DNA of 64,000 bases from Alphaproteobacteria bacterium (GTDB lineage Bacteria; Pseudomonadota; Alphaproteobacteria; CAAHEQ01; UBA3637): assembly GCA_045632845.1 (NCBI GenBank), contig JAZQXL010000020.1:35386-99385 (forward strand). Reading direction: 5' to 3'. Shown here piece by piece: positions 1-57,436 of the stretch. Each line of letters begins with the position of its first letter. Position 1 is the first letter of the stretch. The notes below the pieces were generated by a model. That model saw only the letters and a program-made list of their open reading frames with translations. It had not been told where the DNA came from and did no database searches. Position numbers and translations under genes: made by a program.

Positions 1-740
1 AAGGAACACCAACTGTATATGCAACTCTTCCTGGTGGACACCGTTTTACAGGTATTGCTGGCAGAAATGTTATGTATGACAATAACGATTTAACTGGTGG
101 TATTGCTATGGCTATTCGTGTTTATAAAGAAGATGTTTCTATTTCTATGAGTGACTTTGGTCTAAATGAAGGAGCCAGACTTCGCCCACTCAACCGTTTG
201 AAACAAGTCGAGGATCCCGATGATCCTTTCGAACGATTAATGCTTTCAATCAAAAGAGGTGACCATGTTTTAATCAGCGGGGCAACCGCAACGGGTAAAA
301 CAACATTCTTAAACAATTTAATTAAAGTCTTAGATCCTCACAAACGGATTTTAACCATCGAAGATACAAGGGAATTGATTGTCCCTCACAAAAATAGAGT
401 TCATATCGTTCTTCCTCGTACAGAATTGACCAATAATTTTGATTATAAAAAAGTGATCGACCTTGCTGTACGTTTTACACCAGATGCAATTATTGGTGGT
501 GAAATTTCAACATCCAATGCGGGTGCCCTATGGGAATTGATGGGATCTGGTCACGACAACTGTTTTGCAACAATTCACGCAGAAAGTCCTGATGCCGCCT
601 ATAAAGCTTTTATTGGTCGTATTTTACACTCTTATCCAACAACTGATCGTGAAAAAACATATCGTGAAATGAAAGAAAAACTCCGAGTTGTTCAAATTAA
701 CCGTGATGGCAATATTCGTGCAGTTACAGAAGTCACCTGA
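1..740 (+). CDS. virB11: Type IV secretion / conjugation ATPase of the VirB11/TrbB family, C-terminal ~245 aa; reading frame is open to the window start, so the 5' end lies outside
   Basis: Walker A GATATGKTTFLN; RILTIEDTRELI, DAIIGGEI and GSGHDNCFATIHA motifs typical of secretion NTPases; no stop between position 3 and the listed ATG at 72. Confidence 0.6.
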   Translation, partial: GTPTVYATLPGGHRFTGIAGRNVMYDNNDLTGGIAMAIRVYKEDVSISMSDFGLNEGARLRPLNRLKQVEDPDDPFERLMLSIKRGDHVLISGATATGKTTFLNNLIKVLDPHKRILTIEDTRELIVPHKNRVHIVLPRTELTNNFDYKKVIDLAVRFTPDAIIGGEISTSNAGALWELMGSGHDNCFATIHAESPDAAYKAFIGRILHSYPTTDREKTYREMKEKLRVVQINRDGNIRAVTEVT

Positions 741-6381: not shown

Positions 6382-7164
6382 ATGTCTATTTCAGATATCT
6401 TATTGCTTTCATTTGTTCAAAGTGCAACTGAATTTTTGCCCGTCAGTTCATCGGGCCACCTTATTTTGATGGAAAAATTTGGATTTTCTAATCAAAATTT
6501 GTTAATGGATATCTCTTTACATTTAGGAACATTGATTGCTGTTTTAGCTTTTTTTCACAAAGATATTTTAAACATTCTCAAAAATTTTTATAAAAAAAGC
6601 CAAGAACAAAAACTTCTTTTTCACTTAATCATTGCAACCATTCCAGCTTGTATTCTTGGTTATTTTTTAAATGACATCATCGAAACAACACTCAGATCAC
6701 CGCTTATTATTGCATTCACATCTATTTTTTATGGGTGTTTACTATGGATTGCAGATAAATTTTCCACGAGCAAAAAGGAAATTAAAGATATTGGAGTAAA
6801 AGAAGCTCTCATCATTGGATGCGCACAAGCACTCGCTCTTATCCCTGGCACAAGTCGTTCTGGAATCACAATGACAAGTGCTAGATTTTTAGGATTAAAC
6901 AGGGTTGACAGCGCTAAATTTTCAATGTTATTATCTATCCCTGTTATTGCTTTAGGCGCTTTTTATATGCTTTTTAAAAGCGCAAATGAAGGTATTTTAA
7001 CACCAGAAATTATATCAAATCTTTCAATAGGAATTGTTTCAGCCGGAATTTTTGGATTAGCAGCTGTTTGGTTTTTAATCCGCTGGTTAAAAACAGCCTC
7101 ATTTGCCTTATTTGCAATTTATAGAATTATCTTAGGAATTATTTTGTTCTGTATCTTTCTCTAG
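6382..7164 (+). CDS. uppP: Undecaprenyl-diphosphate phosphatase (UppP/BacA)
   Basis: RBS GGAGGAAAA upstream; motifs SSGHLIL and PGTSRSGITMTSARFLG; multi-TM. Confidence 0.8.
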   Translation: MSISDILLLSFVQSATEFLPVSSSGHLILMEKFGFSNQNLLMDISLHLGTLIAVLAFFHKDILNILKNFYKKSQEQKLLFHLIIATIPACILGYFLNDIIETTLRSPLIIAFTSIFYGCLLWIADKFSTSKKEIKDIGVKEALIIGCAQALALIPGTSRSGITMTSARFLGLNRVDSAKFSMLLSIPVIALGAFYMLFKSANEGILTPEIISNLSIGIVSAGIFGLAAVWFLIRWLKTASFALFAIYRIILGIILFCIFL

Positions 7165-7362
7165 TTTTTTCAAAAGCCAATTAAGAACAAAAACTCTTAA
7201 TGCACTTGACAAATTACCCTCACGGGACATATCAATTTTTTCAACCAACTGTTGAAGTGTTGTTTGCTCAGTTTCAGAAATCTGTTTAAGAATCTTCCAA
7301 AATTCATCTTCCATTGAAACACTGGTTGAATGTCCCATAATTACCAAAGATCTTTTTTTCAT
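7132..7362 (-). CDS. Ribbon-helix-helix protein of the RHH_4 type
   Basis: HSTSVSMEDEFWKIL...GNLSSALRVFVLNWL matches the RHH_4 pattern (HRTSVSLE.EFW..L......GNLSSAIRVFVL). Confidence 0.55.
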   Translation of the reverse strand: MKKRSLVIMGHSTSVSMEDEFWKILKQISETEQTTLQQLVEKIDMSREGNLSSALRVFVLNWLLKKLEKDTEQNNS

Positions 7363-7784
7363 TTTTTACGGTACCGATCTAAATCAATAATTTGTCCAGT
7401 TACGGCTTCATTATTTTTTTCTTTTTTAGGAAATTCGTCTTTTTGTGGCTGCAAAACAAAACCAAACTGTTGTGAAGGATCTGCAAATTGTGTAATTGCA
7501 GTATAAGGAACTTTCAATGTTGATAAAACACCCCCAAAAGCTAAATCAACACAAAAATAATCTTCATTTACAACCAAATTTTCAAATTGATATTGCAAAA
7601 CAACTGTGATTTCTTCTGGATACTTTGCTCGCACAAAATCAGGGATAACAACATCTTTTCGATCTGTTCTAAATGAAATTAAAAAATGATTCTCTGAAGA
7701 CAACCCCTCGTTTTCAACAGTCTTTAAAATATCACGAATCATATATCTTCGTGAAGCATAAAGAAATTGATTATAATCCAACAT
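7359..7784 (-). CDS. sspB: ClpXP adaptor SspB (alphaproteobacterial type)
   Basis: HHFLISFRTDRKDVVIPDFVRAKYPEEITVVLQYQFENLVVNEDYFCVDLAFGG follows the SspB-alpha pattern; RBS AGGAGAGGG upstream. Confidence 0.7.
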   Translation of the reverse strand: MLDYNQFLYASRRYMIRDILKTVENEGLSSENHFLISFRTDRKDVVIPDFVRAKYPEEITVVLQYQFENLVVNEDYFCVDLAFGGVLSTLKVPYTAITQFADPSQQFGFVLQPQKDEFPKKEKNNEAVTGQIIDLDRYRKK

Positions 7785-7795
7785 ATCCCTCTCCT

Positions 7796-8105
7796 AAAAA
7801 AAAGTGGATTTTCTGTTGCTAGGTAATCCACAAACCCCACCTAAACGCTCATATTGTCTAGGGATTGATCGTTACTTAGATACCTAAAATTAAGCAGCTA
7901 AAGCAACTGGAGCAAAATTATCATTTGCGTTTATATTATCAGCCCGATAACGGTGGTACAATACCGGATACAAGAGAAAGCCTTTATTATGCGTGTCGAT
8001 TCTATTTCACCCCCATAATAAATGGTGGAGGTGTCGGGTACTGCCCCCGAGTCCACAGACATCTATTCTGCTTTTCGTTTAGCATCATAGTCAGTTACCT
8101 GACAA
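7796..8105 (-). ncRNA. ssrA: tmRNA (ssrA), two-piece circularly permuted form. Acceptor piece ~8105..8023 ends in CCTCCACCA. An 8-nt linker follows, then the coding piece from ~8014 with tag ORF 7928..7890 and a terminator at ~7796-7831
   Basis: Minus-strand GCA AAT GAT AAT TTT GCT CCA GTT GCT TTA GCT GCT TAA encodes ANDNFAPVALAA-stop. Acceptor 3' strand CACCTCC-A-CCA pairs with GGGGGTG at the start of the coding piece. Stem TCGGG/CCCGA with a 7-nt loop sits before the 3' acceptor strand. Confidence 0.7.
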
Positions 8106-8109
8106 GTTT

Positions 8110-8138
8110 AGTATACCCTAAAATTAAACCAAGCGCAA
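8110..8138 (-). promoter_or_regulatory. Candidate sigma70 promoter for ssrA (TTGCGC, 17 nt, TATACT)
   Basis: hexamers and spacing read from the sequence; AT-rich background makes chance matches possible. Confidence 0.3.
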
Positions 8139-8141
8139 GCT

Positions 8142-9137
8142 CTATTTCTCACCTTGTTTTGACAAATCTCTTAGATTTTTTTGCATTTTAGCTTTAGATA
8201 AATACAAAACAGCAGTTGTTGCTTTTTTACCACTTTCCAAAAGTTGTTGGGCATACAACATCCTTTCTTTTACATTTGATGGCGAAATGCAAATATATTG
8301 TGGAGAGGTCAACAGATACTTCATTAAATGTCTAGCATCTGCATTTGGGTGTTGTGAAAAATAAAACACACCGTTTTCAAAGTTCTCTTGATACATTGTA
8401 ATATTTTGAATCAATGCATTTGTATCTTTACAAAAAAGTTTTGGATGTGAAAAACAAGCATCTATCCAGTCTTGTTTTTGAACACCAAATTTTTGAATAA
8501 AATCACCCATAACCGCACACTTTTGCTTTAACGTTTCAATATCTTTCACCAATATGTCTGGCATTTTTTTCAAAACAGAAACACTTTCATCAAAAGAAAC
8601 ACCATGCGATTTTGAAAAAGCAATAAAATCCATCAATTTCACATCTAGATTTTCAGGATTTATTTTTAAAACATTTGGATATTTAAAAGCCATTTTAACA
8701 AAATCAGTAATAGATACTTTATATTTTGATAAAACAATCAATCCATCATTGATGTTTTTCTTAATTTTTTTAGGCCCCCAACCCAATACCGCTCTCCCAT
8801 GAGCTGTTGAAGACATTTCGTTTAAAAAAAGCTTAGAATCAGCACCTTTTTCTTGAATAAAAGACAACAAATCATTCAATGATGCAGGTAGATACGAAAA
8901 AACAATCCCATCACTAAGCGTATTGTACATATCTTCTTTTGAAACACCACAATCAGAAAAAATCTTTTCAAACAAAGAAAAACGTTCTTGAATATTCACC
9001 CGCAAAAACGGTAAAGATTCTTCTTTTTCTTTTTGACGGACATTCAAAAGTTTCAAAATCTGTTCCTTTGAAAAACCAACAGTTTTAAAATCTTCAACAA
9101 TCTTATTCAAAATCTTTTTTTTATCTTGATTTTCCAT
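8142..9137 (-). CDS. Paralog 1 of a three-gene tandem family with ~35-aa helical repeats containing a PxLL core (mTERF-like solenoid); unknown function
   Basis: Repeated motifs such as KYPNVLKINPENL, SHPKLFCKDTNALIQ; N-terminus GFSKEQILKLL shared with paralogs 2 and 3. Confidence 0.5.
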   Translation of the reverse strand: MENQDKKKILNKIVEDFKTVGFSKEQILKLLNVRQKEKEESLPFLRVNIQERFSLFEKIFSDCGVSKEDMYNTLSDGIVFSYLPASLNDLLSFIQEKGADSKLFLNEMSSTAHGRAVLGWGPKKIKKNINDGLIVLSKYKVSITDFVKMAFKYPNVLKINPENLDVKLMDFIAFSKSHGVSFDESVSVLKKMPDILVKDIETLKQKCAVMGDFIQKFGVQKQDWIDACFSHPKLFCKDTNALIQNITMYQENFENGVFYFSQHPNADARHLMKYLLTSPQYICISPSNVKERMLYAQQLLESGKKATTAVLYLSKAKMQKNLRDLSKQGEK

Positions 9138-10098
9138 GGGTCATCCTTGATTGAAACAACATTTTTCTTTTTTCAGTCCAAAAACTTTCTGGTGCATTTT
9201 TCAAATCTTCCAAAATAGCTCTTTCTGTTTTATAAAGAGCCATTTTTTGAGCTTTACCCTTTGTTTCTTTAATATATTTGGCATAAAGTCTTTTTAATTT
9301 TAAAGCCTCAAGACTATAAACCAAAACAAATGGTTTTTTGAGCAAATATTCTTGTAAATAAGCTTCATGTTTAACCCCTGCATCATCAACACGAATCAAA
9401 TCATCTTCATACATTTTTTTTAAAAAATTGTACTTTTGCTGCATCAATTTTGGATCAGCATATAACAAAGATGGGAACCTCTCAAAAGAAGTTAGTAAAC
9501 AAGAATTATCCGTCCAAAAAATCTGAGACAATTCATTCACTTTTTTTACAATTGTGTTTGGGTTAGCTGATAAAAGCTCAGGAGCTTTTAATGCCAAACG
9601 AATCCAAATATCTTGAGGAACACCCAATTCTCTTGAACAAGCTTGAATACCACTTTCAATCAAATGTGCACTCTTTTGCAAAATGCTTGGTTTTCGAACA
9701 GCGATACCTTTCCATTCATCCATAGATAAACCTAACACATTCGCCTGTAATTCAATGTTCCTTTTAACCCGCGCAAGAGGAATTGTAAAAATATTCGGTG
9801 TGTTCCAAAAAAGCTTAAAACAGGCACTAGGGTCCATCTCAAAAAAACGACTTACAACCTTTAAATTTCGTTCAATATATTCTGGGGTATATCCAAAAAA
9901 ACGAGGTGTTTTTCTTAACTTTATAATACTTTCTTTTCTTGTTTTTTTGTATGTTGAAAACAAATTTACAAAACCATTAATCCGATCTGTAATTTGTGTT
10001 TGAGCAAAAGGATTTTCAGCGCTGCGTAAATTAATAATCCGCATCGCTTCTTCAGCTGTAAAACCATTTTTTTCAAACTCTTTAATAATTTCTTGCAT
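9121..10098 (-). CDS. Paralog 2 of the PxLL-repeat family; start placed at the ATG overlapping the upstream stop (TAATG), because the track start at 10155 is a TTG
   Basis: Repeats RKTPRFFGYTPEYIERNLKVV / WNTPNIFTIPLARVKRNIELQ / VRKPSILQKSAHLIESGIQ / LKAPELLSANPNTIVKKVNEL / ERFPSLLYADPKLMQQKYNFL. Confidence 0.5.
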   Translation of the reverse strand: MQEIIKEFEKNGFTAEEAMRIINLRSAENPFAQTQITDRINGFVNLFSTYKKTRKESIIKLRKTPRFFGYTPEYIERNLKVVSRFFEMDPSACFKLFWNTPNIFTIPLARVKRNIELQANVLGLSMDEWKGIAVRKPSILQKSAHLIESGIQACSRELGVPQDIWIRLALKAPELLSANPNTIVKKVNELSQIFWTDNSCLLTSFERFPSLLYADPKLMQQKYNFLKKMYEDDLIRVDDAGVKHEAYLQEYLLKKPFVLVYSLEALKLKRLYAKYIKETKGKAQKMALYKTERAILEDLKNAPESFWTEKRKMLFQSRMTHGKSR

Positions 10099-11300
10099 TA
10101 CTTCCCTTTTTGATTTTTTAAATACGCTTGAAAAAGAGCTGGATTTTTCTTCCAAAAATCATCTGGAACATTTTTTAAATCTTCCATAATTTTGCTTGAC
10201 CGTTTCCATATTGGTGCCTTAGATGAAACCCCTTGATTTTCTTTTATCCATAAGCCATAAGCACGCCTTACTTCCAAAGATTGCATGCTGGGAACAAGCA
10301 TTTCTTTTGCATTTTTTAAAATATGATTTTTTAATAAATTTAAATCTTTTTTTGCTTCATTTCCAAGACAAAAAGCATCATCTAAATACATCTGTTTATA
10401 AAAATCATATTTTTGTTTAATCGAGTTAGGCGCACACAAAAATAAAGTAGGCATTTTCAAAAATGAAGTGATAATTGTTTTTGAATCTGTAGAAAATATA
10501 TCTGCAACTTTTGAAACATTAGAATGGATTCTATCAGGCGCTACTTGCAACAACGAGGGAGCAAATAAATACATTTTGCAAATATCTTCTTTTGGCAAAT
10601 TAAAATATTTTGTCCCAGCATCTATTTTTTCAATCAAATTTTGATCTGAATAACTCAACAATGAAGGTGCTTTCAAAAATGATTTTTGAACATCATCTTT
10701 TGACACATCAAAATCTTCTGATATCTTTTGTATGAGATTTAAAACCGTTTCTGGATTTCTGGTTAATATATTTGGAAACTCCTTAAATAATTTTGAAAAA
10801 TCAGTTTCATCTAAATTTAAACCTTTTTTTAAAAGTGTTACGTTTTTCATCACATATTCAGGAGAAAAAGCAAGCAATGTAGGATGCTTCAAACTTTTTT
10901 CTAAAAAAACAGCGGGTTCAACACCAACAATTTCAGCATTTTTAATTAAATTTGAAAAAAGTCCCTCAGGTTTTCTGGTTAACAAATTAGGCTGTTTAAC
11001 AAGAATTGAAACAAGTTTTTCTGGTTCTATTTTCAAAAGTTTTGCATTTTGAAGTAGGTTTTTCCTCAACATTGGTAAAGAGGTTGTTAACAATAAGCGA
11101 GGCTCTTTTACAATCGCTTTTTTTGCCACATTTTTAGAAACTGAAAATTCATCAAAAAACAAAAAAAGATCATCTATCTTCTTTGATATTTCTGTTTTTG
11201 AAAAAGGATTTACCTTTGTCTTCATCCAAAAATCAATAACTTTAGATGCCTCATCCTTTGAAAAACCAGCGTTTAAAAATGTGTCAACAACTTCACTCAT
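10098..11300 (-). CDS. Paralog 3 of the PxLL-repeat family (400 aa); its start overlaps the rlmB stop (ATGA)
   Basis: Repeats VKEPRLLLTTSLPMLRKNLL / VKQPNLLTRKPEGLFSNLIKN / LKHPTLLAFSPEYVMKNVTLL / FKEFPNILTRNPETVLNLIQKI / LKAPSLLSYSDQNLIEKIDAG. Confidence 0.5.
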   Translation of the reverse strand: MSEVVDTFLNAGFSKDEASKVIDFWMKTKVNPFSKTEISKKIDDLFLFFDEFSVSKNVAKKAIVKEPRLLLTTSLPMLRKNLLQNAKLLKIEPEKLVSILVKQPNLLTRKPEGLFSNLIKNAEIVGVEPAVFLEKSLKHPTLLAFSPEYVMKNVTLLKKGLNLDETDFSKLFKEFPNILTRNPETVLNLIQKISEDFDVSKDDVQKSFLKAPSLLSYSDQNLIEKIDAGTKYFNLPKEDICKMYLFAPSLLQVAPDRIHSNVSKVADIFSTDSKTIITSFLKMPTLFLCAPNSIKQKYDFYKQMYLDDAFCLGNEAKKDLNLLKNHILKNAKEMLVPSMQSLEVRRAYGLWIKENQGVSSKAPIWKRSSKIMEDLKNVPDDFWKKNPALFQAYLKNQKGK

Positions 11301-12079
11301 TTATTCATTCCCAAATGGTGTTGTCTGTTCCATTCATACAAAGCAATCGCACAAGCGTTTGAAACATTCAAACTTTCAACCGAAGGATTCATTGGAAGCT
11401 TCACCGTATCATCACAATTTTCACTTGTCAAACGTCTCAATCCATCCCCTTCTGATCCCATAACAACAACACATTTCTTCGGCAATTTGGCTTGATATAT
11501 ACTGTGTTTTGCATACCCATCTAATCCAATACACCAAAATCCACTTTCTTTAAGCTCTTGCATTGCTCTCGTTAAATTTTTAACTTTGACCAATGGAATT
11601 AATTCCAACGCACCACTCGCTGACTTTGCAAGAACACCTGTTTCATCCGGAGCACCATTTTGCGGAACAATAACCCCACATGCATTAAATGCAGCTGCTG
11701 AACGCAAAACGGCCCCAATGTTATGCGGATCGGTCACTTGGTCCAAAATCACAACCAATGCATGTTCTTTATCTTCCACCTCATTCATCAAATCAATCAC
11801 ATCATATTGTGGCAATGGCTGACATCTAGCAACAATACCTTGGTGGACAGCTTCTTTCCCCACAAGGGAATCCAATTGTTCTTTTGAAACTATTTTGAAT
11901 GACACATTTTTAGGAATTTGAATTTTATCCAAAGAACCAGAAAGAACAAGAACTTCACGCACCACCCTTCTTTTATTTGCCAATGCTAAAGAAACTGGAT
12001 GTTTTCCATATAAATAAATATCTTTTTGAGGAGCAGAATTCCCTCTTGAAAATTCTTTTGAGTGTTGTCTTTTTTTCAT
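11297..12079 (-). CDS. rlmB: TrmH/SpoU-family 23S rRNA 2'-O-methyltransferase (RlmB-like)
   Basis: N-terminal substrate-binding region YLYGKHPVSLALANKRRVV plus a SpoU methylase core (ILDQVTDPHNIGAVLRSAAAF, VMGSEGDGL). Confidence 0.7.
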   Translation of the reverse strand: MKKRQHSKEFSRGNSAPQKDIYLYGKHPVSLALANKRRVVREVLVLSGSLDKIQIPKNVSFKIVSKEQLDSLVGKEAVHQGIVARCQPLPQYDVIDLMNEVEDKEHALVVILDQVTDPHNIGAVLRSAAAFNACGVIVPQNGAPDETGVLAKSASGALELIPLVKVKNLTRAMQELKESGFWCIGLDGYAKHSIYQAKLPKKCVVVMGSEGDGLRRLTSENCDDTVKLPMNPSVESLNVSNACAIALYEWNRQHHLGMNK

Positions 12080-12160
12080 ATCAAATCCCTTAAAAATAAA
12101 AACTGTTTCAGATTATACCATTTTTTGAGTATTTTAGCAATTAAAAAACCACGCATAAAA

Positions 12161-12196
12161 AAACACCACCTCTTTTTCAGAAAGTGGTGTTTTTTA
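12161..12196 (-). terminator. Intrinsic terminator after ileS (AACACCAC...GTGGTGTT plus T-run)
   Basis: hairpin with T-run on the minus strand. Confidence 0.45.
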
Positions 12197-12206
12197 TTGT
12201 TTTTAA

Positions 12207-15200
12207 TTAATTTTTACTAACATCAAATGAAATGGAGGAATCACCCAATTCTTCGACTTTAAACAAGTTTTCTGTTACAGGTTTAATTTCAACAGCAAGA
12301 ACTTGATCTTTGATGTAATTTTCATGTTCACCAATGGCTTCTTTAACCAAAGATGAGATTGTGTTATATGAAAGAGTAATTCTATCAGAAACATCAAAAC
12401 TCTTTTCTTTTCTCAAAGATTGAATCATACGAACAAAGTCACGAGCAATACCTTCTTTTTCAAGTTCTGGTACAATTTCAACATCTAATTGAACAACAAC
12501 TGTATTGTCTGGAAGAGCTTGTCCTTGTAATCCTTCTTTCAACACAAGACGTAACTCAAATTCTTCAGCTGTCAATGTTTGACCTGCAATTGAGAGTGTA
12601 CCATCTTCATTTTTATGCCAATTTGCGCCTTTTGATTCTGCCATAATATCTTTCATAAAACGACCCAAGCGTTTTCCAATTAATGGCGTTTTTAAATAAA
12701 GGAATGTATTTGCAACTTCTTTAATATCTGTTTTAAAGATAATTTCTTTAACATTCACTTCTTCTTTCAAAACTTCAGCAAATTCATAAAGTTTTTCAAC
12801 ACTTGCCCCTGCCAATGTCATTGAACGCAATGGCAAACGGTTACGTAATCTGTGTTCTTCACGAATAGCTTTTGCTGTTGAAGAAATGGCACGAACCATA
12901 TCCATTTTTTCCATCAACTCTGTATCAAGTGTCAAAGCACTCACATCAGGATATGTTCTCAAATGAACAGATTCTTTACCCGCCAAACTACGATAGACAT
13001 ATTCACTCATCATTGGCATCAACGGAGCCATAACTTTAGCAACAGTGATTAAAACAGTGTAAAGCACATTAAAGGCATCCAAATCTGTACCGTCCCAGAA
13101 ACGTGTACGAGAACGGCGGATGTACCAGTTGTTTAAAATATCTAAAAATTCTGAACAAAGTGCACAAGCTTGATTGATGTCGTAAGCTTGCATTGATGTT
13201 TTAACATCCTCAGTCAAAACTTTTAATTTAGATAAAATGTACTTATCCAAAACATCTGTTGATCCAACTGTTTTTGTTGCTTTAATACCTTCAGCATTTG
13301 CATAGAGGCAGAAGAAATAGAAAGCATTCCATAAAGGCATTAATGCTTTACGAGCAGCTTTTGAAACTTCTTTACCCTCTTGGTCAATCATAACGTTACC
13401 ACCCTTAATAACAGGGGATGAAATCAAGAACCAACGAAGCGCATCAGAACCCATTGAATCAAGAACAATGTATGGATCTGGGTAGTTTTTCAACTTTTTA
13501 GAAAGTTTAACACCACCTTCCGCCATAATAAGTCCTGTACATAAACAGTTTTTAAACGCTGGTTTATGATGAAGTGCTGTACCTAAAACATGCAATGTAT
13601 AGAACCATCCACGTGTCTGATCAATTGCTTCAACAATAAAATCAGCTGGGAAATGATTTTCAAACCATGTTTTGTTTTCAAATGGATAATGGATTTGACC
13701 TTCAGGCATTGAACCAGATTCAAACCAACAATCGAAAACATCTGTTACACGGCGCATCATTGTTTTGCCAGATGGATCATCTGGGTTTTTGTAAACAACA
13801 TCATCAATGATTGGACGGTGCAAATCAGAAACTTCAATACCTGTTTTTTCTTTAATTTCAGCAATTGAACCAAATACATCAATGCGTGGAAATTCTGGAT
13901 TATCAGATTTCCAAACAGGAATTGGGGTTCCCCAAAAACGATTTCGTGAGATTGACCAATCTCTTGCACCTTCAAGCCACTTACCAAAACGACCATGTTT
14001 TAAGTGATCAGGAGTCCAAGTAATTTGTTCATTCAAAGCAACCATTTCATCTCTAAAGTCAGAAACTTTCACAAACCACCCACTCATTGCTTTATAAATA
14101 AGTGGTGTATCAGTCCGCCAGCAGTAGGGATAACTGTGTGTGATTTGTTCTTTCTTAACCAAAAGACGATTTTCTTTTAACCAAGCCATAATAGCTTCAT
14201 TTGTGTCAAAAACTTGTTGTCCTTGATAATCCGGAACTTCAGCTGTAAAACAACCAGCTTCATCCACAGGACATACAACAGGGAATTCTGGGTTTAATGA
14301 ACGGCAAACATCAAAGTCATCTTGCCCAAAACCAGGAGCAATATGAACAATACCTGTACCATCTTCCACAGACACAAATTCACCAGATAAAACCTTAAAA
14401 CATCCAGCTTCTTTTAATGATTTAAAATATGGGAACATTGGTTCATAAGAAAGACCGACCAACTCTGAACCTTTGATTGTTCCAACTTGTTCTGCGTGCT
14501 GCAACTGTTGTTTATATCTTGGCAACAAAGCTGCTGCTAAAATATATTTTTCATCCCCTTCTTGCATAATTGCATAATCAATATCTGCTCCAACTGCCAG
14601 CATTAGGTTTGAAGGAAGCGTCCAAGGGGTTGTTGTCCACACAAGAACATTCATACCGTTTTCCAATTTAAACAAAACAGTAATAGCTGTATCTGTTTTA
14701 TCTTTATAACCCAAATTTACTTCAAAGTTTGAAACAGGTGTTTGGGCGCACCAAGAATAAGGTTGAACACGATAATCTTCATAAACCAACCCTTTATCAT
14801 ACAACTGTTTAAAGTTGTGGATAATTGATTCCATAAATGGCAAATCCATTGTTTTATAATCATTATCAAAATCAACCCAACGACCAATACGTTTGAACAT
14901 ATCAGTCCAAATTGTTGAATATTTCAAAACATTTGTACGGCAAAAATCATTGAATTTTTGAATACCAAACTCTTCAATTGCTTTATGCCCAGAAACATTC
15001 AATTCTTTTTCAGCCGCCATTTCAGCTGGAAGACCGTGACAGTCCCAACCTAAACGACGTTCAACACGTTTTCCATTCATTGTTTGAAAGCGTGCAATTG
15101 TATCTTTAACGTAAGAAATCATAATATGTCCATAGTGAGGCAACCCGTTTGCAAATGGAGGGCCATCATAGAATACAAATTCTTCAGCTTCTTTTCTAAT

Positions 15201-15314
15201 TTCAATCGATTTTTGAAATATCTTTTGCTCTTCCCAATAAGCAATCATTTCTTTTTCCATTTCAGGAAAACTGATTTTAGAATTTAACTGTGGATAATAT
15301 TTTTGTTGAGACAT
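12207..15314 (-). CDS. ileS: Isoleucyl-tRNA synthetase, type 2 (eukaryote-like bacterial form), 1035 aa
   Basis: PPFANGLPHYGH (HIGH-class motif of IleRS type 2), KMSKS-like KLSKKLKNY, length ~1035 aa. Confidence 0.85.
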   Translation of the reverse strand: MSQQKYYPQLNSKISFPEMEKEMIAYWEEQKIFQKSIEIRKEAEEFVFYDGPPFANGLPHYGHIMISYVKDTIARFQTMNGKRVERRLGWDCHGLPAEMAAEKELNVSGHKAIEEFGIQKFNDFCRTNVLKYSTIWTDMFKRIGRWVDFDNDYKTMDLPFMESIIHNFKQLYDKGLVYEDYRVQPYSWCAQTPVSNFEVNLGYKDKTDTAITVLFKLENGMNVLVWTTTPWTLPSNLMLAVGADIDYAIMQEGDEKYILAAALLPRYKQQLQHAEQVGTIKGSELVGLSYEPMFPYFKSLKEAGCFKVLSGEFVSVEDGTGIVHIAPGFGQDDFDVCRSLNPEFPVVCPVDEAGCFTAEVPDYQGQQVFDTNEAIMAWLKENRLLVKKEQITHSYPYCWRTDTPLIYKAMSGWFVKVSDFRDEMVALNEQITWTPDHLKHGRFGKWLEGARDWSISRNRFWGTPIPVWKSDNPEFPRIDVFGSIAEIKEKTGIEVSDLHRPIIDDVVYKNPDDPSGKTMMRRVTDVFDCWFESGSMPEGQIHYPFENKTWFENHFPADFIVEAIDQTRGWFYTLHVLGTALHHKPAFKNCLCTGLIMAEGGVKLSKKLKNYPDPYIVLDSMGSDALRWFLISSPVIKGGNVMIDQEGKEVSKAARKALMPLWNAFYFFCLYANAEGIKATKTVGSTDVLDKYILSKLKVLTEDVKTSMQAYDINQACALCSEFLDILNNWYIRRSRTRFWDGTDLDAFNVLYTVLITVAKVMAPLMPMMSEYVYRSLAGKESVHLRTYPDVSALTLDTELMEKMDMVRAISSTAKAIREEHRLRNRLPLRSMTLAGASVEKLYEFAEVLKEEVNVKEIIFKTDIKEVANTFLYLKTPLIGKRLGRFMKDIMAESKGANWHKNEDGTLSIAGQTLTAEEFELRLVLKEGLQGQALPDNTVVVQLDVEIVPELEKEGIARDFVRMIQSLRKEKSFDVSDRITLSYNTISSLVKEAIGEHENYIKDQVLAVEIKPVTENLFKVEELGDSSISFDVSKN

Positions 15315-15427
15315 ATTTTTTTCCTTACCTTACGCAAAAAATTATTTTCAAAACTTTATAGAGCCAGATTATGCCAAAAAAATGCCTAAAAATCAAGCAA
15401 AAATATCAAAATTTTCTATTTATTAGA

Positions 15428-15970
15428 TTAATTAGCAGACAAAAACCTCATTGAAAGAGCTTCTTCATTTTGAAAAATTTCAACTTTCAAATTGTTTTTT
15501 TGCATCCAATCCTTCAACCACAAAGCAACCGCATATTGTGGTTTTTCAAACCCTTCATCACCAAGCAAAATTTGCTTTTTTTTATCTTCTAAAAATAATC
15601 CTTTTCCTGTACAAACAAAACCATTTTCAGTTAACTCAATACTTCCGCCCCGAATTAAAATTTCAGAAGACATTAACACAAAAATCAAATGTTCTTTTTT
15701 CTGAACTTGTCCTACCAAGGAAATCGGCATTGGTAATGTGTCTAAATATTTTAATGCAATATCTAATGTAATTGAAGAATCAACACCCAAAAGAGCACGA
15801 TACAACCTTAATCTTGCAACCAAAACACCTGTGGACTGTTTTAATAAATCAACGCCTTCTTCAACAAAAGAGGCGTCCATTTTTAATAACTCAGTTGTGT
15901 TATCTAAAACCCCAATACTACCTGCCAAATCATGGCACATTTTTGTAACAAAAACCTCACTTAAATTCAT
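15428..15970 (-). CDS. chpT: ChpT-like histidine phosphotransferase (CtrA phosphorelay)
   Basis: MCHDLAGSIGVLDNTTELL...VLVARLRLYRALLG and IRGGSIELT follow the ChpT pattern (CHD..SP.GA..NG.ELL ... R.AFG ... RGGS). Confidence 0.55.
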   Translation of the reverse strand: MNLSEVFVTKMCHDLAGSIGVLDNTTELLKMDASFVEEGVDLLKQSTGVLVARLRLYRALLGVDSSITLDIALKYLDTLPMPISLVGQVQKKEHLIFVLMSSEILIRGGSIELTENGFVCTGKGLFLEDKKKQILLGDEGFEKPQYAVALWLKDWMQKNNLKVEIFQNEEALSMRFLSAN

Positions 15971-16853
15971 GCTTCACCTCTTTTTCATCCAAAAGCATTT
16001 TGGCAATTTGCGAACCAATTTCTGTTGCAGAAGAAATCACTTTAATCCCTGCCTTTTCCAATGCTTTTTCTTTCAATTGCAAAGCATTTTCTTCAACTCT
16101 AACACCAAGAACAGGTGTTTTTTCTTCACGCACAACATGGCGCCCAGGAATATAAATGGCGATTTTTTTGCGGCTCTTTTTTTTCTTTAAAAAATCAATT
16201 AATTCATATTCAAATTCACCACTTGCTTTCCCAATCAACAAGATAATATTTGTTTTTGCATCTTTTAAAAAAGCTTCAACAAATGGGATAAAAGAAGAGC
16301 CAATAATTGCAGCTGAACCAATCGCAGCACAAGAAGAAACACCCAAATCAAATTTAGATAATTGTTGAACAGCCTCATATGTCAAAGAACTTGATCTTGA
16401 AACAATGCCAACACTTCCTTTTGGAAACAAATGTGCTGGAACCGTGCCCGCCAAACATTCATCAGCTGTCACAACCCCAGGCGCAGATGGACCAACCAGT
16501 TGAACTTTATATTTAACAGCCAACTGCTTCATCTTTAAAACATCTTGATATGGCACATGATTAACAGGGCAAATAATAACAGGAATATGAGATTTAGCCG
16601 CCTCTTCAAAATCTTGCAACACCCGTTGTGGACTTGAAAAAATAACACTAATTTGTGGTTTTGTCTTTCGAACAGCATCTTTAACAGTTTGAAATACAGG
16701 AATATTTTGAAATGTTGTAACAGATTTATCTTTACTAACCCCCGCAACAATATTTGTGCCGTATAAAAGAGCTTTTTCAACATGCATTGCAGCTGAAGAA
16801 GAGGTAATTCCTTGATACAAAACAGGTGTATTTTTGTTTGGAAATTTAAACAT
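15957..16853 (-). CDS. sucD: Succinyl-CoA synthetase alpha subunit
   Basis: NKNTPVLYQGITSSSAA..., SRSSSLTYEAV, CAAIGSAAIIGS consistent with SucD; 1-nt overlap with sucC. Confidence 0.8.
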   Translation of the reverse strand: MFKFPNKNTPVLYQGITSSSAAMHVEKALLYGTNIVAGVSKDKSVTTFQNIPVFQTVKDAVRKTKPQISVIFSSPQRVLQDFEEAAKSHIPVIICPVNHVPYQDVLKMKQLAVKYKVQLVGPSAPGVVTADECLAGTVPAHLFPKGSVGIVSRSSSLTYEAVQQLSKFDLGVSSCAAIGSAAIIGSSFIPFVEAFLKDAKTNIILLIGKASGEFEYELIDFLKKKKSRKKIAIYIPGRHVVREEKTPVLGVRVEENALQLKEKALEKAGIKVISSATEIGSQIAKMLLDEKEVKHEFK

Positions 16854-17989
16854 TACAACAACTCCTCCACTTGACGAATAACCATATCTGCAGCTTCATC
16901 TAAATCTTTCATCACAACAAGCGGTAAATGTGAATCAAATAACAAACGAGAACCAACTTGCGCATTTGTTCCATCCATTCGAACAATTAAAGGCATTCCA
17001 ACCGATATTTCTTGCGAAGCAGAAATCAAACCATCTGCAATGACATCGCATCTTGTAATGCCGCCAAAAATGTTCACAAAAACACCTTCAACATTTGGCT
17101 CACTCAACGCCAATTTTAAAGCTTGAAAAACAGATTCTTTTGTTGGTTCTGTCCCCACATCTAATAAACAAGCAGGCTTTCCACCCTTTTGGGCCAACAA
17201 ATCAATTGTTGCCGCACCCAAGCCAGAACCATTAACCAAACAAGCAATATTCCCGTCAAAAGAAACGTATCTAAAATTATGAATTCTTGCACGTTCTTGC
17301 CGTTCCAAACCCAAAGGAATTTCACGCATTTTTGCAATTTCAGGAAAACGGAACATTGCTTCATCATCAAAAATAATCCGACAATCTAAAACAACCCATT
17401 TACCTTTTTGATTCAAAACCAAAGGATCAAACTCAATTGCCAAAACATTATATTTCACAAAAAAAGCATACATTTGTTTTAAAATCGGCAACATCAATGC
17501 TTCTTGCACATTTTTAAAATGAAACATTTTTAAAATACGGCACCAAAACAAAACGCTCGGTTTTCCAACAGGCAATTCACACTCTGACGTTTTTTTCTTT
17601 GACTTAATGCACACAAGCATTTTTTGAGTTTGTGTATCCACACGCATGGAGAGAGAAACTTTTTCTTCAATTTGACACAACTCTTCAACATAAATACGTT
17701 GTACAGGATAATACATTCCCCTACCCGTCAACACCTTGCTGTTGAACAAAGTTGTTGCCAACGTTTCAACTTCTTCAAGTGAATGCGCATCTAAAGAACC
17801 TTGAATATTTGGAATATATTCCACAATTTTTTCAGCGAGCGGCAACTGAACGTGCAAGCGCCAACTTTTACAAGACATTCCTTTTGCAATTTCAACCGCT
17901 TCTTCAACGGTATAAGCAACATTTCCTTTTAATACAGGAATTTTGTTTTCACGCAATAATCGTTTATTTTGATATTCGCAAAGTTCCAT
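16853..17989 (-). CDS. sucC: Succinyl-CoA synthetase beta subunit (divergent N-terminus)
   Basis: FDGNIACLVNGSGLGAATIDLL...LDVGTEPTKESV...VNIFGGITRCDVIADG match SucC ligase-CoA domain motifs. Confidence 0.8.
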   Translation of the reverse strand: MELCEYQNKRLLRENKIPVLKGNVAYTVEEAVEIAKGMSCKSWRLHVQLPLAEKIVEYIPNIQGSLDAHSLEEVETLATTLFNSKVLTGRGMYYPVQRIYVEELCQIEEKVSLSMRVDTQTQKMLVCIKSKKKTSECELPVGKPSVLFWCRILKMFHFKNVQEALMLPILKQMYAFFVKYNVLAIEFDPLVLNQKGKWVVLDCRIIFDDEAMFRFPEIAKMREIPLGLERQERARIHNFRYVSFDGNIACLVNGSGLGAATIDLLAQKGGKPACLLDVGTEPTKESVFQALKLALSEPNVEGVFVNIFGGITRCDVIADGLISASQEISVGMPLIVRMDGTNAQVGSRLLFDSHLPLVVMKDLDEAADMVIRQVEELL

Positions 17990-19484: not shown

Positions 19485-19561
19485 GCACTTGTAGCTCAGC
19501 TGGATAGAGTATTGCCCTCCGAAGGCAAGGGTCGTGAGTTCGAATCTCGCCAAGTGCGCCA
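19485..19561 (+). tRNA. tRNA-Arg (anticodon CCG), CCA encoded
   Basis: Acceptor GCACTTG/CAAGTGC, anticodon arm TTGCC-CTCCGAA-GGCAA, T-arm GTGAG-TTCGAAT-CTCGC, discriminator G then CCA. Confidence 0.8.
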
Positions 19562-19802
19562 AAAAACACCACCTGCAAAGGTGGTTTTTTTGTACTTGAG
19601 CGGGAACAGAACTCACGAAGTGACGTTCGGTGAGCACCGCGAACGACGCCGAAGGCGGTCCTTTAGGACGAGTGTTTTATGCACGAGCAATCTCGCCAAG
19701 TGCGCCAAAAAACACCACCTGCAATGGTGGGCTTTTTTTGTACTTGAGCGGGAGAAAAACTCACGAAGTGACGTTCGGTGAGCCTTGCAAACGACGCCAA
19801 GC
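19543..19802 (+). repeat. Tandem imperfect direct repeat (two ~115-122 bp copies, 19543-19664 and 19689-19802, ~90% identical). Each copy contains the last ~19 nt of tRNA-Arg, the terminator hairpin and ~60 bp of downstream sequence
   Basis: aatctcgccaagtgcgccaaaaaacaccacctgcaa[a/t]ggtgg...gtacttgagcggga...aactcacgaagtgacgttcggtgagc...aacgacgcc occurs twice. Confidence 0.6.
19563..19593 (+). terminator. Intrinsic terminator after tRNA-Arg (CACCACCTGCAAAGGTGG plus T7)
   Basis: hairpin plus T-run. Confidence 0.5.
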
Positions 19803-21243: not shown

Positions 21244-21564
21244 CTAATATAAATCAATCCCTTTTCCTAATTCTATGTCAAAAACAGTTTGATTTGTGTT
21301 GAGATCATTTTTTGAGTTAGGCTTTAGGATTTTTATTGACTTAATTTCAAATATCATTTTTTCAGGATTTTTTCTATATGCTTTTTGAAATTCAACATAA
21401 GAATATTTATTGGCTACAGACAATCGCTTAATCCAATAGTCTTTACACTCTCGATATTCATGTGTTTTTACACCGGCTTTAATCTTTTCAAACCAGATAT
21501 CTTTCAAAACTAATTTTAAAGTGTTAGACATTATTAAGAACTTTTCTTGAATAGAGTGTCCCAT
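21244..21564 (-). CDS. Small PUA-like (ASCH-type) domain protein, overlapping the 3' end of the methyltransferase gene
   Basis: LKLVLKDIWFEKIKAGVKTHEYRE resembles the ASCH N-terminal beta-barrel signature (W/F-E-x-I-x-x-G-x-K-T-x-E-x-R); weak. Confidence 0.4.
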   Translation of the reverse strand: MGHSIQEKFLIMSNTLKLVLKDIWFEKIKAGVKTHEYRECKDYWIKRLSVANKYSYVEFQKAYRKNPEKMIFEIKSIKILKPNSKNDLNTNQTVFDIELGKGIDLY

Positions 21565-22751
21565 AATTCTGAAATGTGCTTTGCTACGTTATAAGCCAAT
21601 AGAGGTGGAACCGCATTACCTATAATCTTATATGCAGCAGAAGCACTTAATACATTTGGCTTTACAAACTCATATTCATCAGGAAAAGTCTGTATTCTTG
21701 CGCATTCTCTAACAGTTAATCTTCTTTCAGATAGTCCTTTTTTTAACTCTTTTTCATGCTTTCCACCATGATCTTTTGACAATCTTCTGAATTCGATATT
21801 GCCGTGATGTTCTGCACGAATTGTAGGACCTAATCCTTTTAAATTGATTTCAGTATTTCCTTGACCTTTTTGCATATACTTTGCTTTCGAATATGCTTTT
21901 TGAGCAAAATCATCTGACGATGAAGGTTCCGGCAAATCTCTTAATATTTCTTCTACGGATACCAAAGGAAGTAAGTCTTTATTGTCAAACAAAGTGCTTT
22001 TTTGATAAATATTATGTGTAATCGGTGGATATAAATTTATTTCTTTTTTTTCAATCTTCTCAAGAACTCCTGGATTTAAAGCAGCTTTATTTAACCCTAT
22101 AAAAATAATTCTTTCTCGTTTTTGTGGCACACCATATTCGCCAGCATTTAATACTTTTGCAGGGAATACGTAGTAGCCATCCTTATCAATCGACGAAAAA
22201 TCTGATTCTATAATCTTTTTTGCCTCGCCCAAAGAAACCAATCCTTTTACATTTTCTGCAAAAAATATCTTGGGTTTTACGATTTCTATAACTTCTTTCA
22301 TCCACATATATAAACAACCACGATTTTCGTAAGTAGGTATATCGATATCTTTCTTTCCTAAGTGGTTTTTTTGAGAGTTAAATCCATTACGCTTACCTGC
22401 TAAACTAAAATCTTGACAGGGAAAACCTCCCGTGAGAATATCTATATCATTTGGAAACACTCTTTCGCCAGACTTATGTTGTTTAACCAAATCAACGATA
22501 CTTTCTGTTCTATAAGTTGTTTTTTTATCCTTAAAATATAACTTCCATGCAGTAGCAGCTTCTTTTAGTATGTCATTACTAAAAGTAGTGGTAAAACCCG
22601 TTGGAGCTAATAAAACTCTTTTGCCAGATTTCTTTTTTATCCAGTCAGGATGTATTACGGTGTTTACGCTACTTTCATGTACATAGAAATCACCCTCGAA
22701 ACCAATGTCCATACCGCCGCATCCACTGAATAATGATAATACTTTTTTCAT
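21534..22751 (-). CDS. DNA (cytosine-5)-methyltransferase, Dcm family (type II R-M methylase)
   Basis: Motif I FSGCGGMDIGF, motif IV GGFPCQDFSLAG, motif VI FFAENVKGL, motif VIII QKRERIIFIG, motif X GNAVPPLLA; RBS AAGGGAG. Confidence 0.9.
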   Translation of the reverse strand: MKKVLSLFSGCGGMDIGFEGDFYVHESSVNTVIHPDWIKKKSGKRVLLAPTGFTTTFSNDILKEAATAWKLYFKDKKTTYRTESIVDLVKQHKSGERVFPNDIDILTGGFPCQDFSLAGKRNGFNSQKNHLGKKDIDIPTYENRGCLYMWMKEVIEIVKPKIFFAENVKGLVSLGEAKKIIESDFSSIDKDGYYVFPAKVLNAGEYGVPQKRERIIFIGLNKAALNPGVLEKIEKKEINLYPPITHNIYQKSTLFDNKDLLPLVSVEEILRDLPEPSSSDDFAQKAYSKAKYMQKGQGNTEINLKGLGPTIRAEHHGNIEFRRLSKDHGGKHEKELKKGLSERRLTVRECARIQTFPDEYEFVKPNVLSASAAYKIIGNAVPPLLAYNVAKHISELWDTLFKKSS

Positions 22752-27036: not shown

Positions 27037-27189
27037 CACCTCTTGCACAAAAAAAAATACGCATCATCCTGCCAACAAGCGAGGTAAACTCATGCTCATA
27101 TAAACACAAAAAAAACATTGCGTTTAGTATTCAAAACACTCAATATAACATATAGATTATCATTCATATTCATAATAAATGGGGTAATT

Positions 27190-27780
27190 ATGAAAAAAAT
27201 CTTATTTTCCATTTTATTTTCTTGTGTGTTTTTATGCAACACAACTCAAGCTCAAGTCGTTTCTAACGAAGAAATAAACCCAACCAAACTTGAAAACGCA
27301 AAAAAAATTATTTTGCAATTACAAGCGGAAATGAAAGACTATATCTCAAACGGGTCAGGGCCTTTTTTAGCTGCTGTGATTGATGAAAATAGAAAAATCG
27401 TTTCCAAAACCGCCAACAGTGTTGTATCGGAAGGTTGCAGTAATAATCATGCAGAAATGAATGCCATTAAAATGGCTCAAAAAAACTTAGGAACCTATGA
27501 TTTATCAAAACATAACTTAAGCTTATATGTTACGTCTGAACCTTGCATGATGTGTATTGGGGGCATTATGTGGTCAGGCATCAAATCCGTGTATTATGGT
27601 GTTCCTTCAAAACGAGTTGAAGAAATCACAGGTTTTGATGAAGGATTTAAACCAAATTGGTTTGAAGAATTTAAAAACAGAGGAATTGTCGTTTATGGTA
27701 ACATTGAAATAGAAGAAGGTGAAAAAGTACTGCATAATTATGTAGACACGGGCAAAACAGTGTACCAACCAGAACGATAA
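27190..27780 (+). CDS. CDA-fold zinc deaminase resembling guanine deaminase GuaD / TadA, with an N-terminal Sec-type signal peptide (predicted to be exported)
   Basis: MKKILFSILFSCVFLCNTTQA-QV signal peptide; GPFLAAVID, HAEMNAI and EPCMMCIGG zinc-binding motifs parallel to GuaD (GPFGAVIV / HAEVTAI / EPCPMCLGA). The track start at 27118 is a TTG, so it is rejected. Confidence 0.65.
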   Translation: MKKILFSILFSCVFLCNTTQAQVVSNEEINPTKLENAKKIILQLQAEMKDYISNGSGPFLAAVIDENRKIVSKTANSVVSEGCSNNHAEMNAIKMAQKNLGTYDLSKHNLSLYVTSEPCMMCIGGIMWSGIKSVYYGVPSKRVEEITGFDEGFKPNWFEEFKNRGIVVYGNIEIEEGEKVLHNYVDTGKTVYQPER

Positions 27781-56257: not shown

Positions 56258-57436
56258 CTATTTTGTTTTAGATTTATCTTCTGCTTCATAAAACAACAGC
56301 GTCTTTAAAGCTTTTAATTTTTCCAATTCAATAGCTGGCAGATTTGTTTTATGCCCACTCTTATATAAAAAGCCTTGAATGGGTTCTCCATTTTCAAAAA
56401 CAACCTCTAAAGTTTGTTCACCGCTTCTCGAATAATTTTTTGTTAACCCATGAAATTGATTGTTTGCAAATGAAACTGTCTTTGCTATTTTTCCATCTTC
56501 ATAGTAAACTTTAGCTTCTCCATTTTTTTGATTGTTTGTATAAAAAATCTCACTATGAATCTGTCCTGACTTATAATATTCTTTAGAAACGCCTTCTAAT
56601 CTCCCATTTTTATACATCATTTCAAAAAGAAGAATCCCATCTTTATCATAGATTTTTGAGATACCTTCTCGTTCATTATTTTTAAACAAATACGAAGCTA
56701 TTTTATTTCCTTCTGTATCAAACTCAAATCCTTCCCCTTCTAATATACCATTTTTATAAGGGAATTCTGCTTGTTTTTGTTTGTTGTCATAGAACATATA
56801 AACAACACCATCAACAACATCATTTTTAAAAGGAACTTGCATTTTCAAAATACCAGTTTTGGAATACACATCTTTGACACCTTCTAATCTATCATTTTGA
56901 TAAAAAGAAGATTCCTTTAACTGTCCATTTTCATAATAAATCTTGTCACTACCATTTTGCAGACCTTTGTTATAAGTTGTTTCTTGCTTAATAATACCTG
57001 AAGGATAAAATTCTTTAACAACACCAGTAAGCAAATCATTTTCATAATGCTCTTCATATTTAACTTGACCAGTTTCATAATACTCTTGTAGCAACCCCTC
57101 TGTCTTATCATTCACACGAGAATAAATCATCATCAAATTCCCATTTGAATAATATTGCTTAAACTGCCCGTGAATCTGATCATCAAGATATGAGATTTCC
57201 ATACGAAGTTGCCCATTGTCATAATAATACTTAGCAAGACCATTTCTTTTATCATTCAAATACGTAATTTCAGATTGCACCTTACCATTTGAAAAATACG
57301 TACGTTTTGTATATTCCCTTTCAACCAAAAAATAAGATGCACAACCAAAAACAATCGCACAAAAAATCAAAAAAAGAACTATTTTTTTTATCATTGAAAC
57401 CTCATAAAAATTTCTTTTAGTATAGAAAAGTCCCAC
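56258..57436 (-). CDS. MORN-variant repeat protein (YwqK-like), N-terminal membrane anchor
   Basis: ~13 tandem 23-aa repeats of the form G.....Y..NG.L. (for example YYDNGQLRMEISYLDDQIHGQFKQYYSNGNL). Confidence 0.6.
   Translation of the reverse strand: MGLFYTKRNFYEVSMIKKIVLFLIFCAIVFGCASYFLVEREYTKRTYFSNGKVQSEITYLNDKRNGLAKYYYDNGQLRMEISYLDDQIHGQFKQYYSNGNLMMIYSRVNDKTEGLLQEYYETGQVKYEEHYENDLLTGVVKEFYPSGIIKQETTYNKGLQNGSDKIYYENGQLKESSFYQNDRLEGVKDVYSKTGILKMQVPFKNDVVDGVVYMFYDNKQKQAEFPYKNGILEGEGFEFDTEGNKIASYLFKNNEREGISKIYDKDGILLFEMMYKNGRLEGVSKEYYKSGQIHSEIFYTNNQKNGEAKVYYEDGKIAKTVSFANNQFHGLTKNYSRSGEQTLEVVFENGEPIQGFLYKSGHKTNLPAIELEKLKALKTLLFYEAEDKSKTK

Follow-up and report, generated by a model that had tools for sequence, protein, structure and literature searches.

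Three tandem mTERF-superfamily genes between rlmB and ssrA on an alphaproteobacterial chromosome

Three overlapping paralogous genes

The window analysed here is a 64,000-nucleotide (nt) stretch of DNA from an Alphaproteobacteria bacterium (contig JAZQXL010000020.1). Three consecutive minus-strand open reading frames (ORFs) occupy its positions 8142-11300, placed between rlmB and ssrA, the gene of a two-piece transfer-messenger RNA (tmRNA). Their products, called here paralogues A, B and C, belong to the mTERF (mitochondrial transcription termination factor) superfamily by sequence and predicted fold. The three genes are as follows:

10098-11300, minus strand: paralogue A, 400 amino acids (aa), isoelectric point (pI) 9.3; seven KxPxLL units of 36 aa, flanked by degenerate units at both termini
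9121-10098, minus strand: paralogue B, 325 aa, pI 9.65; without two repeats that are present in A
8142-9137, minus strand: paralogue C, 331 aa, pI 9.1; more divergent than A and B

The junctions were read directly in the sequence. The rlmB stop and the A start form an ATGA overlap, the A stop and the B start form a TAATG overlap, and B shares its last 17 nt (9121-9137) with C. The longest ORF of B begins at a TTG codon at 10155 and gives 344 aa, and the ATG start gives 325 aa; the 325-aa start is favoured by the way the gene is called in relatives and by the way its N-terminus aligns with those of A and C. The proteins carry net charges of +14 (A), +18 (B) and +10 (C), and A and B end in basic C-terminal tails.

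A, B and C are true paralogues. BLASTP aligns A with B at an E-value of 1e-42 (31% identity), B with C at 2e-14 and A with C at 3e-07; the alignment also showed that A is longer than B and C by about 75 residues, which corresponds to two repeats. An N-terminal motif, G-F-(S/T)-x-(D/E)-(E/Q), is found as GFSKDE, GFTAEE and GFSKEQ in the trio, and G12 and F13 are invariant in an alignment of 14 orthologues and paralogues. The seven K-x-P-x-L-L units of A follow a strict period of 36-37 aa from P67 to P284, while B has five units at exactly 36 aa and a looser sixth. Only three clear motif units, 39 aa apart, are present in C, for which the structural model gives about seven three-helix units. Anchored on the repeat proline, 15 units yield the consensus h..hhK.P.LL...P..h...h..h...h......h, and many invariant Lys/Arg residues stand just before this proline. 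The repeat motif of mTERF proteins (about 30-36 residues, a proline and spaced hydrophobic residues) is thus present in the trio, although in C the sequence shows it only in part.

These results bear out much of the first-pass annotation of this DNA, which had described three consecutive minus-strand genes of these sizes, their chain of overlapping stop/start codons, the common N-terminal motif, and rlmB upstream with tmRNA and then sspB downstream. Its count of six to eight repeats in each protein holds for A and roughly for B; in C it is recovered in the structure only, with three units by motif.

Beyond the repeats lies a conserved C-terminal region of about 100 residues (A ~297-400, B ~220-325, C ~245-331; window 10098-10412, 9121-9441 and 8142-8405), which falls outside the stretch matched by the Pfam mTERF model. 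Its pattern, QKYxFxKxMY ... LL..P ... S...L..R..Y, is kept in the A and B types and is weaker in C, and the region also occurs in the distant homologues P0012, P0014, P0033 and P0073. It may serve as a cap or interaction module peculiar to this family.

mTERF family membership, fold and occurrence in bacteria

According to the Pfam search, all three proteins match mTERF (PF02536) above its gathering cut-off of 23.1 bits, with 61.6 bits for A, 46.6 for B and 37.7 for C. No other Pfam family, TPR, Sel1 and HEAT included, was found for A, B or C at E<=10, and searches against NCBIfam, PADLOC and PHROGs (the latter two at E<=0.01) gave no match. A profile of A orthologues, compared with all PDB sequences, retrieved only Tetrahymena mS93 and human MTERF3 and MTERF4. 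The AlphaFold2 models of A and C (pLDDT 87.5 and 88.9) both have a repeating long-short-long helix pattern, with three-helix units stacked in a superhelical solenoid like that of MTERF1, MTERF3 and MTERF4. Foldseek comparison with the PDB gave mTERF proteins for all of the top 19 matches of model A and all of the top 16 of model C (for C, MTERF1 3n7q at TM 0.62/0.68). The top matches of both models were MTERF1-DNA complexes (3mva, 3n6s, 3n7q), in which the human DNA-bound terminator shares superhelical repeats of similar length with the trio. TAL effectors and BurrH-type repeats, in contrast, scored much lower, gave no profile match and have another repeat topology and signature.

Helical-repeat families can cross-match weakly, and C shows only three clear motifs, so one could ask whether the trio belongs to another bacterial repeat family (TPR, Sel1, HEAT or PPR) that merely resembles mTERF. 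We regard this as scarcely conceivable, since Pfam gives mTERF alone at E<=10 and Foldseek agrees for A and C; on these two results, membership in the TPR, Sel1, HEAT or PPR families was rejected. The first-pass annotation had associated the repeats with mTERF solenoids, had named the Pfam search and structure prediction as checks, and had set against its reading a placement in a family such as TPR, Sel1 or HEAT. Its mTERF assignment stands on both checks, the structural one for models A and C, because no such competing fold or profile turned up.

With the organellar mTERFs (MTERF3, MTERF4-NSUN4, mTERF9, mS93/mL114/mL121) the trio shares the Pfam profile, the repeat unit of about 36 aa with its proline and hydrophobic residues, and the basic charge. 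Unlike them, it is encoded on a bacterial chromosome by tandem overlapping operon genes, has no organelle targeting, carries the conserved C-terminal region beyond the Pfam model, and is only 11-18% identical to solved mTERFs. Members of the family are usually nuclear-encoded and imported into organelles, which is not the case for genes on an alphaproteobacterial chromosome; A, B and C therefore count as mTERF proteins on sequence and fold, whereas the customary definition in terms of cell biology does not cover them.

Reviews, and a 2026 survey of the family, have continued to describe mTERFs as absent from bacteria (PMC12977773). In 2024, however, pTERF proteins from metagenome-assembled genomes (MAGs) of ruminant-gut Bacillota were reported as the first prokaryotic mTERF-like proteins (PMC11417379). 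They were the sole prokaryotic exception found in our literature search, which returned no description of alphaproteobacterial mTERFs. Since bacterial mTERF-like proteins were already on record, the trio does not represent a novel protein type. When the A family was used for an exhaustive profile search, 1239 cluster representatives were identified at E<=1e-3, 413 of them at <=1e-10, and the genomic contexts of such matches were bacterial contigs in all eight cases checked. The first-pass view that the fold is essentially eukaryotic thus has to be given up in the light of the 2024 report, the 1239 representatives and the eight bacterial contexts. The contexts (genomic loci carry L numbers, proteins P numbers) are listed below:

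L010: array of A only, bacterial
L017: AAABC array, bacterial
L018 and L019: BC array, bacterial
L011, 8001-9956: 651-aa protein amid porin (Porin_O_P) and NADH-dehydrogenase-like genes
L012, 3073-9302: five tandem mTERF genes (281, 436, 480, 439 and 433 aa) near mlaA and mlaC
L013 (GCA_045638265.1), 6550-17107: two mTERF genes, with prfA-prmC on one side and a cluster of ankyrin-repeat genes on the other
L014: high-G+C contig, adjoining a Fic gene
L015 and L016: 1.8-Mb contig with SURF1 and IalB

The five-gene array of L012, on a 136-kb metagenomic contig with no rlmB or tmRNA nearby, matches Pfam mTERF at up to 95 bits and is an independent expansion of bacterial mTERF genes. The pair in L013 follows prfA-prmC and two DUF2207_C-like genes, beyond which at least four ankyrin-repeat genes are found, a gene content reminiscent of host-associated bacteria. 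Another family, of Lys/Asn-rich proteins of 480-880 aa (e.g., P0017, P0022, P0024, P0027), accounts for 46 of the 149 best distant matches; its members share the motif F-x-x-I-x-L-x3-E-x2-K-S at the N-terminus, their mTERF repeats occupy the C-terminal half, and some have an HTH segment (P0022). The single context examined is that of L011.

Like the trio, the pTERF proteins are bacterial, come from gut or ruminant MAGs, and consist of tandem three-helix units of about 35 aa with a predicted mTERF-like fold (PMC11417379). They differ in being mostly from Bacillota, in being reported without the Pro-8/Leu signature and without obvious sequence similarity to mTERF, and in not being described as paralogue arrays linked to rlmB or ssrA (PMC11417379). 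The trio is alphaproteobacterial, keeps the KxPxLL signature and passes the Pfam mTERF model, a comparison made with the published description of pTERF. Because of the retained Pro/Leu signature and the alphaproteobacterial host, it does not obviously belong to the same subfamily as pTERF.

The rlmB unit and its conservation in relatives

The genes and candidate signals around the trio are given below:

12157..12190, minus strand: terminator-like hairpin with T-run after ileS (RNAfold -17.4 kcal/mol, seven T's)
12112..12140, minus strand: promoter-like site 5' of rlmB (TTGCTA, 17 nt, TGgTATAAT)
11297..12079, minus strand: rlmB, 23S rRNA (guanosine2251-2'-O)-methyltransferase (TIGR00186, 217.4 bits, cut-off 160)
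8110..8138, minus strand: ssrA promoter-like element (TTGCGC, 17 nt, TATACT), 4 nt past the C stop
7801..8142, minus strand: ssrA, two-piece circularly permuted alphaproteobacterial tmRNA (Rfam RF01849, 243.6 bits; RF04321, 146.7 bits)
7359..7784, minus strand: sspB, ClpXP adaptor for ssrA-tagged proteins (Pfam SspB, 107 bits)

The hairpin after ileS separates this gene from the rlmB unit. A simple terminator scan did not flag it, and six relatives share it (L002, L003, L005, L006, L009 and, further upstream, L001). The promoter-like site before rlmB scored 10 of 12 matches in a consensus scan and has an extended -10 TG. Its TTGA/TTGC ... TATAAT pattern is kept in the window and in L001, L002, L003, L005, L006, L008 and L009; the variant in L010 reads TAAAAT, and L018 is without the site. 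As the first gene of the unit, rlmB is complete and contains the Pfam domains SpoU_sub_bind and SpoU_methylase. A scan for terminator-like sites found none inside or between rlmB, A, B and C. In its simplest reading, the locus appears to form a single unit, P-rlmB-A-B-C, because of the promoter-like site, the terminator-like hairpin after ileS, the lack of an internal terminator in the scan and the overlapping stop/start codons.

For ssrA, a consensus promoter scan gave no promoter, whereas a nine-locus alignment, extended by L018, revealed the element TTGC..-17-TATA(A/C)T, which is invariant or nearly so in the window, L002, L003, L005, L006, L008, L009, L010, L017 and L018. In L018 it lies about 136 nt past the last mTERF stop and still adjoins the tmRNA. 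Judging from this conservation, ssrA probably has its own promoter, so it need not share the transcript of the trio; read-through from the trio into ssrA is possible and not required. Obligatory co-transcription of ssrA with the trio, suggested by an Rfam match that begins right at the C stop and by the negative promoter scan, was considered and dropped once the element was seen in the alignment, together with the L018 spacing. The first-pass proposal of one RNA operon is accordingly kept for the rlmB-A-B-C arrangement, and ssrA need not be included in it. The 5' end of the alpha_tmRNA match from Rfam encloses the element; ARAGORN calls the tmRNA at 7799-8116, with the tag peptide ANDNFAPVALAA. 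Because the promoter-like element falls inside them, the 5' boundaries from Rfam and ARAGORN (8142 and 8116) probably overshoot the mature tmRNA.

The gene order in relatives is sucCD - hypothetical - ileS - rlmB - A - B - C - ssrA - sspB - RHH - bacA, with the following arrays:

Window and L002-L009: A, B, C; rlmB 83-97% identical to that of the window
L010: A only; rlmB 77% identical
L018/L019: B, C; Peptidase_S8 replaces ileS upstream; rlmB 69% identical
L017: A, A, A, B, C, followed by tmRNA and sspB; the contig ends before rlmB

The order of A, B and C is constant in all arrays, each of which keeps at least one copy. Wherever the contig includes the upstream end of an array, the array is flanked by rlmB and ssrA, whatever gene precedes rlmB. 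The adjacency to rlmB is conserved in four array types (L017, the fifth, ends before rlmB), a linkage that is genetic only. Since orthologues of the three types can be recognised across the A, BC, ABC and AAABC arrays, the A, B and C types are, as judged from their sequences, older than these lineages and vertically inherited. Word-indexed homologue searches retrieved close orthologues only (8-10 proteins each), scans of metagenome contigs gave no match to the trio, and a genome scan found related genes in only four species-level MAGs.

A, B and C are under purifying selection. In the three closest comparisons, dN/dS was 0.18-0.19 for A, 0.08-0.13 for B and 0.15-0.21 for C, compared with 0.03-0.04 for ileS and 0.02-0.08 for rlmB. 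Between L009 and the window, ileS is 94% identical and A, B and C are 49-56% identical. Recent horizontal acquisition, or residence on an island, was rejected, as the G+C content of the mTERF genes equals that of their surroundings (the window is ~33% G+C) and their position and order are conserved.

The same observations bear on an idea raised in the first-pass annotation, namely that the trio might be host-acquired, eukaryote-like effectors. In its full form, this reading would have the genes come from a host or protist and the proteins leave the cell, for example through a type IV system, and target nucleic acids of host organelles. Elsewhere the domain family is typical of organelles, a fragment of a T2SSE-family secretion ATPase is found in the window, the L013 mTERF pair (in one other, unrelated MAG) adjoins an ankyrin-repeat cluster, and fast evolution, variable copy number and the basic C-terminal tails of A and B would be in keeping with such a role. 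However, the trio holds a fixed position next to rlmB in a housekeeping unit of the core genome, its G+C matches that of its neighbours, and the A/B/C split is old and vertically inherited. On inspection, the N-termini are without a hydrophobic signal-peptide-like stretch, and the nearest relatives in the profile search are on bacterial contigs and are not eukaryotic mTERFs. In other respects the window looks like a normal stretch of bacterial chromosome, with genes for AcrB, Mla, DnaA, RNase R, RecA and NAD salvage, and the secretion machinery in it amounts to the truncated ATPase ORF (72-740, plus strand, near the window edge), which might be of the VirB11, CpaF or PilB type and had been read at first pass as a virB11 fragment. 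We therefore consider an effector role very improbable.

The related species-representative genomes are MAGs titled 'Alphaproteobacteria bacterium', one of them from roe-deer colon. The alpha-type tmRNA, the G+C content of about 33% and the titles of these genomes indicate that the host is an uncultured, gut-associated, low-G+C alphaproteobacterium.

Two further features of the window were recorded. A tandem duplication of about 147 nt (19543-19798, plus strand; copies 89-94% identical) begins in the 3' end of tRNA-Arg(CCG) and repeats it, and may be a remnant attachment site. The stretch that follows, at 22-32 kb, has a lower G+C content (0.28-0.32) and contains a C5 DNA methylase gene (21534-22751), a deaminase gene (27118-27780) and an ORF of 1224 aa without a Pfam match (28515-32189). 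Elsewhere, a 392-aa protein made of MORN_2 repeat variants (56258-57436, minus strand; Pfam 153.8 bits) adjoins Mla-type transporter genes.

Candidate functions and meaning for the family

We tentatively propose that A, B and C are intracellular nucleic-acid binders that are made together with RlmB and act in the maturation or assembly of the large-subunit rRNA, a proposal whose chance we place somewhat below even. The rlmB promoter would drive an rlmB-A-B-C transcript, along which the overlapping stop/start codons probably couple translation. The three proteins would bind the large-subunit rRNA or its precursors inside the bacterium, RNA rather than DNA being the presumed ligand, and would aid in maturation or assembly at about the stage where RlmB acts; the three ancient paralogues may recognise different sites or form a hetero-complex.

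Nucleic-acid binding in general is plausible from the pI of 9.1-9.7, the net charge of +10 to +18 and the invariant Lys/Arg residues before the repeat prolines, and because pTERF1 and pTERF2 bind nucleic acid with nanomolar affinity (PMC11417379). The link to rRNA maturation is suggested by operon membership, the overlapping codons, the fixed position after rlmB and the precedent of organellar mTERFs. According to previous studies, MTERF4 with the methyltransferase NSUN4, as well as MTERF3 and chloroplast mTERF9, function in ribosome biogenesis (PMC5538620, PMC8998825). The ribosome-bound proteins mS93, mL114 and mL121 are a further precedent. Methyltransferase- or ribosome-linked mTERF entries of this kind (4fp9, 7o9k, 6z1p and 7pkt) are among the structure matches of the trio. 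As MTERF4 is associated with NSUN4, the trio is genetically associated with an rRNA methyltransferase gene; however, NSUN4 is an m5C-type enzyme, while the candidate partner RlmB is a SpoU 2'-O-methylase. RlmB is the bacterial counterpart of mitochondrial MRM1.

Several observations weigh against a role in rRNA maturation. The whole neighbourhood (sspB, RHH, bacA, MoxR, etc.) is syntenic in relatives, which makes adjacency to rlmB weak evidence, as it may reflect low rearrangement. The overlap with rlmB is not universal, with gaps of 1-33 nt in L002, L005, L006 and L018, and no paralogue is kept in every lineage (A only in L010; B and C only in L018). A, B and C evolve 2-5 times faster than rlmB and ileS, and such fast evolution would be unusual for a core ribosome-biogenesis factor. 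Furthermore, the bacterial arrays of L011, L012 and L013 are away from rRNA-modification genes, and, among bacterial mTERF-like proteins, those assayed to date are binders of double-stranded DNA rather than of RNA (PMC11417379).

The last point leads to a different explanation, in which A, B and C are sequence-specific binders of double-stranded DNA, acting as bacterial transcription regulators or roadblock terminators, with an incidental position after rlmB; they could, for example, keep transcripts of the rlmB unit from running on into the strong ssrA promoter, or control other loci. Previous work showed that pTERF1 and pTERF2 bind defined double-stranded-DNA motifs with nanomolar affinity and sequence specificity, pTERF1 (MBQ3414883.1) recognising ACTNNNAGTC with a Kd of 1.9 nM and pTERF2 preferring a different motif (PMC11417379). 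MTERF1-DNA complexes as top Foldseek matches of A and C point in the same direction, although fold likeness cannot tell DNA binders from RNA binders within the mTERF family. Variation in copy number and fast divergence of the repeats would fit modules that track changing targets, and no terminator separates C from the ssrA promoter-like element, which begins 4 nt past the gene. However, no repeated DNA target was noticed in passing around the locus, where no dedicated search was made, and the constant place right after rlmB, in lineages whose rlmB is 69-97% identical, is left unexplained. On balance we judge DNA binding of this kind somewhat less likely than the role in rRNA maturation, to which it is a close rival.

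Whichever role applies, what is apparently new here is a clade of alphaproteobacterial mTERFs with the canonical signature and three ancient types, whose copy number varies and whose place in the rlmB unit, next to ssrA, is fixed. Canonical-signature mTERFs are thereby placed in the Alphaproteobacteria, the class related to the mitochondrial ancestor. One may speculate that the mTERF fold has a bacterial, possibly alphaproteobacterial, origin as a partner of enzymes for rRNA modification and ribosome assembly, and that the rlmB-linked A, B and C, instead of having come from a eukaryotic gene, are survivors of the lineage from which eukaryotes obtained it via the mitochondrial ancestor. We think this improbable; if it were true, the pairing of MTERF4 with a methyltransferase would reflect an ancestral bacterial arrangement. 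Should A, B and C turn out to be ordinary DNA-binding regulators, they would be a modest extension of the pTERF story. The rlmB-linked arrays offer a tractable bacterial system for studying the role of an mTERF solenoid outside an organelle, the age of the link between mTERF proteins and rRNA methyltransferases, and the origin of the family, and their naturally diversified 36-aa repeat scaffolds may be of interest for the design of programmable nucleic-acid binders.

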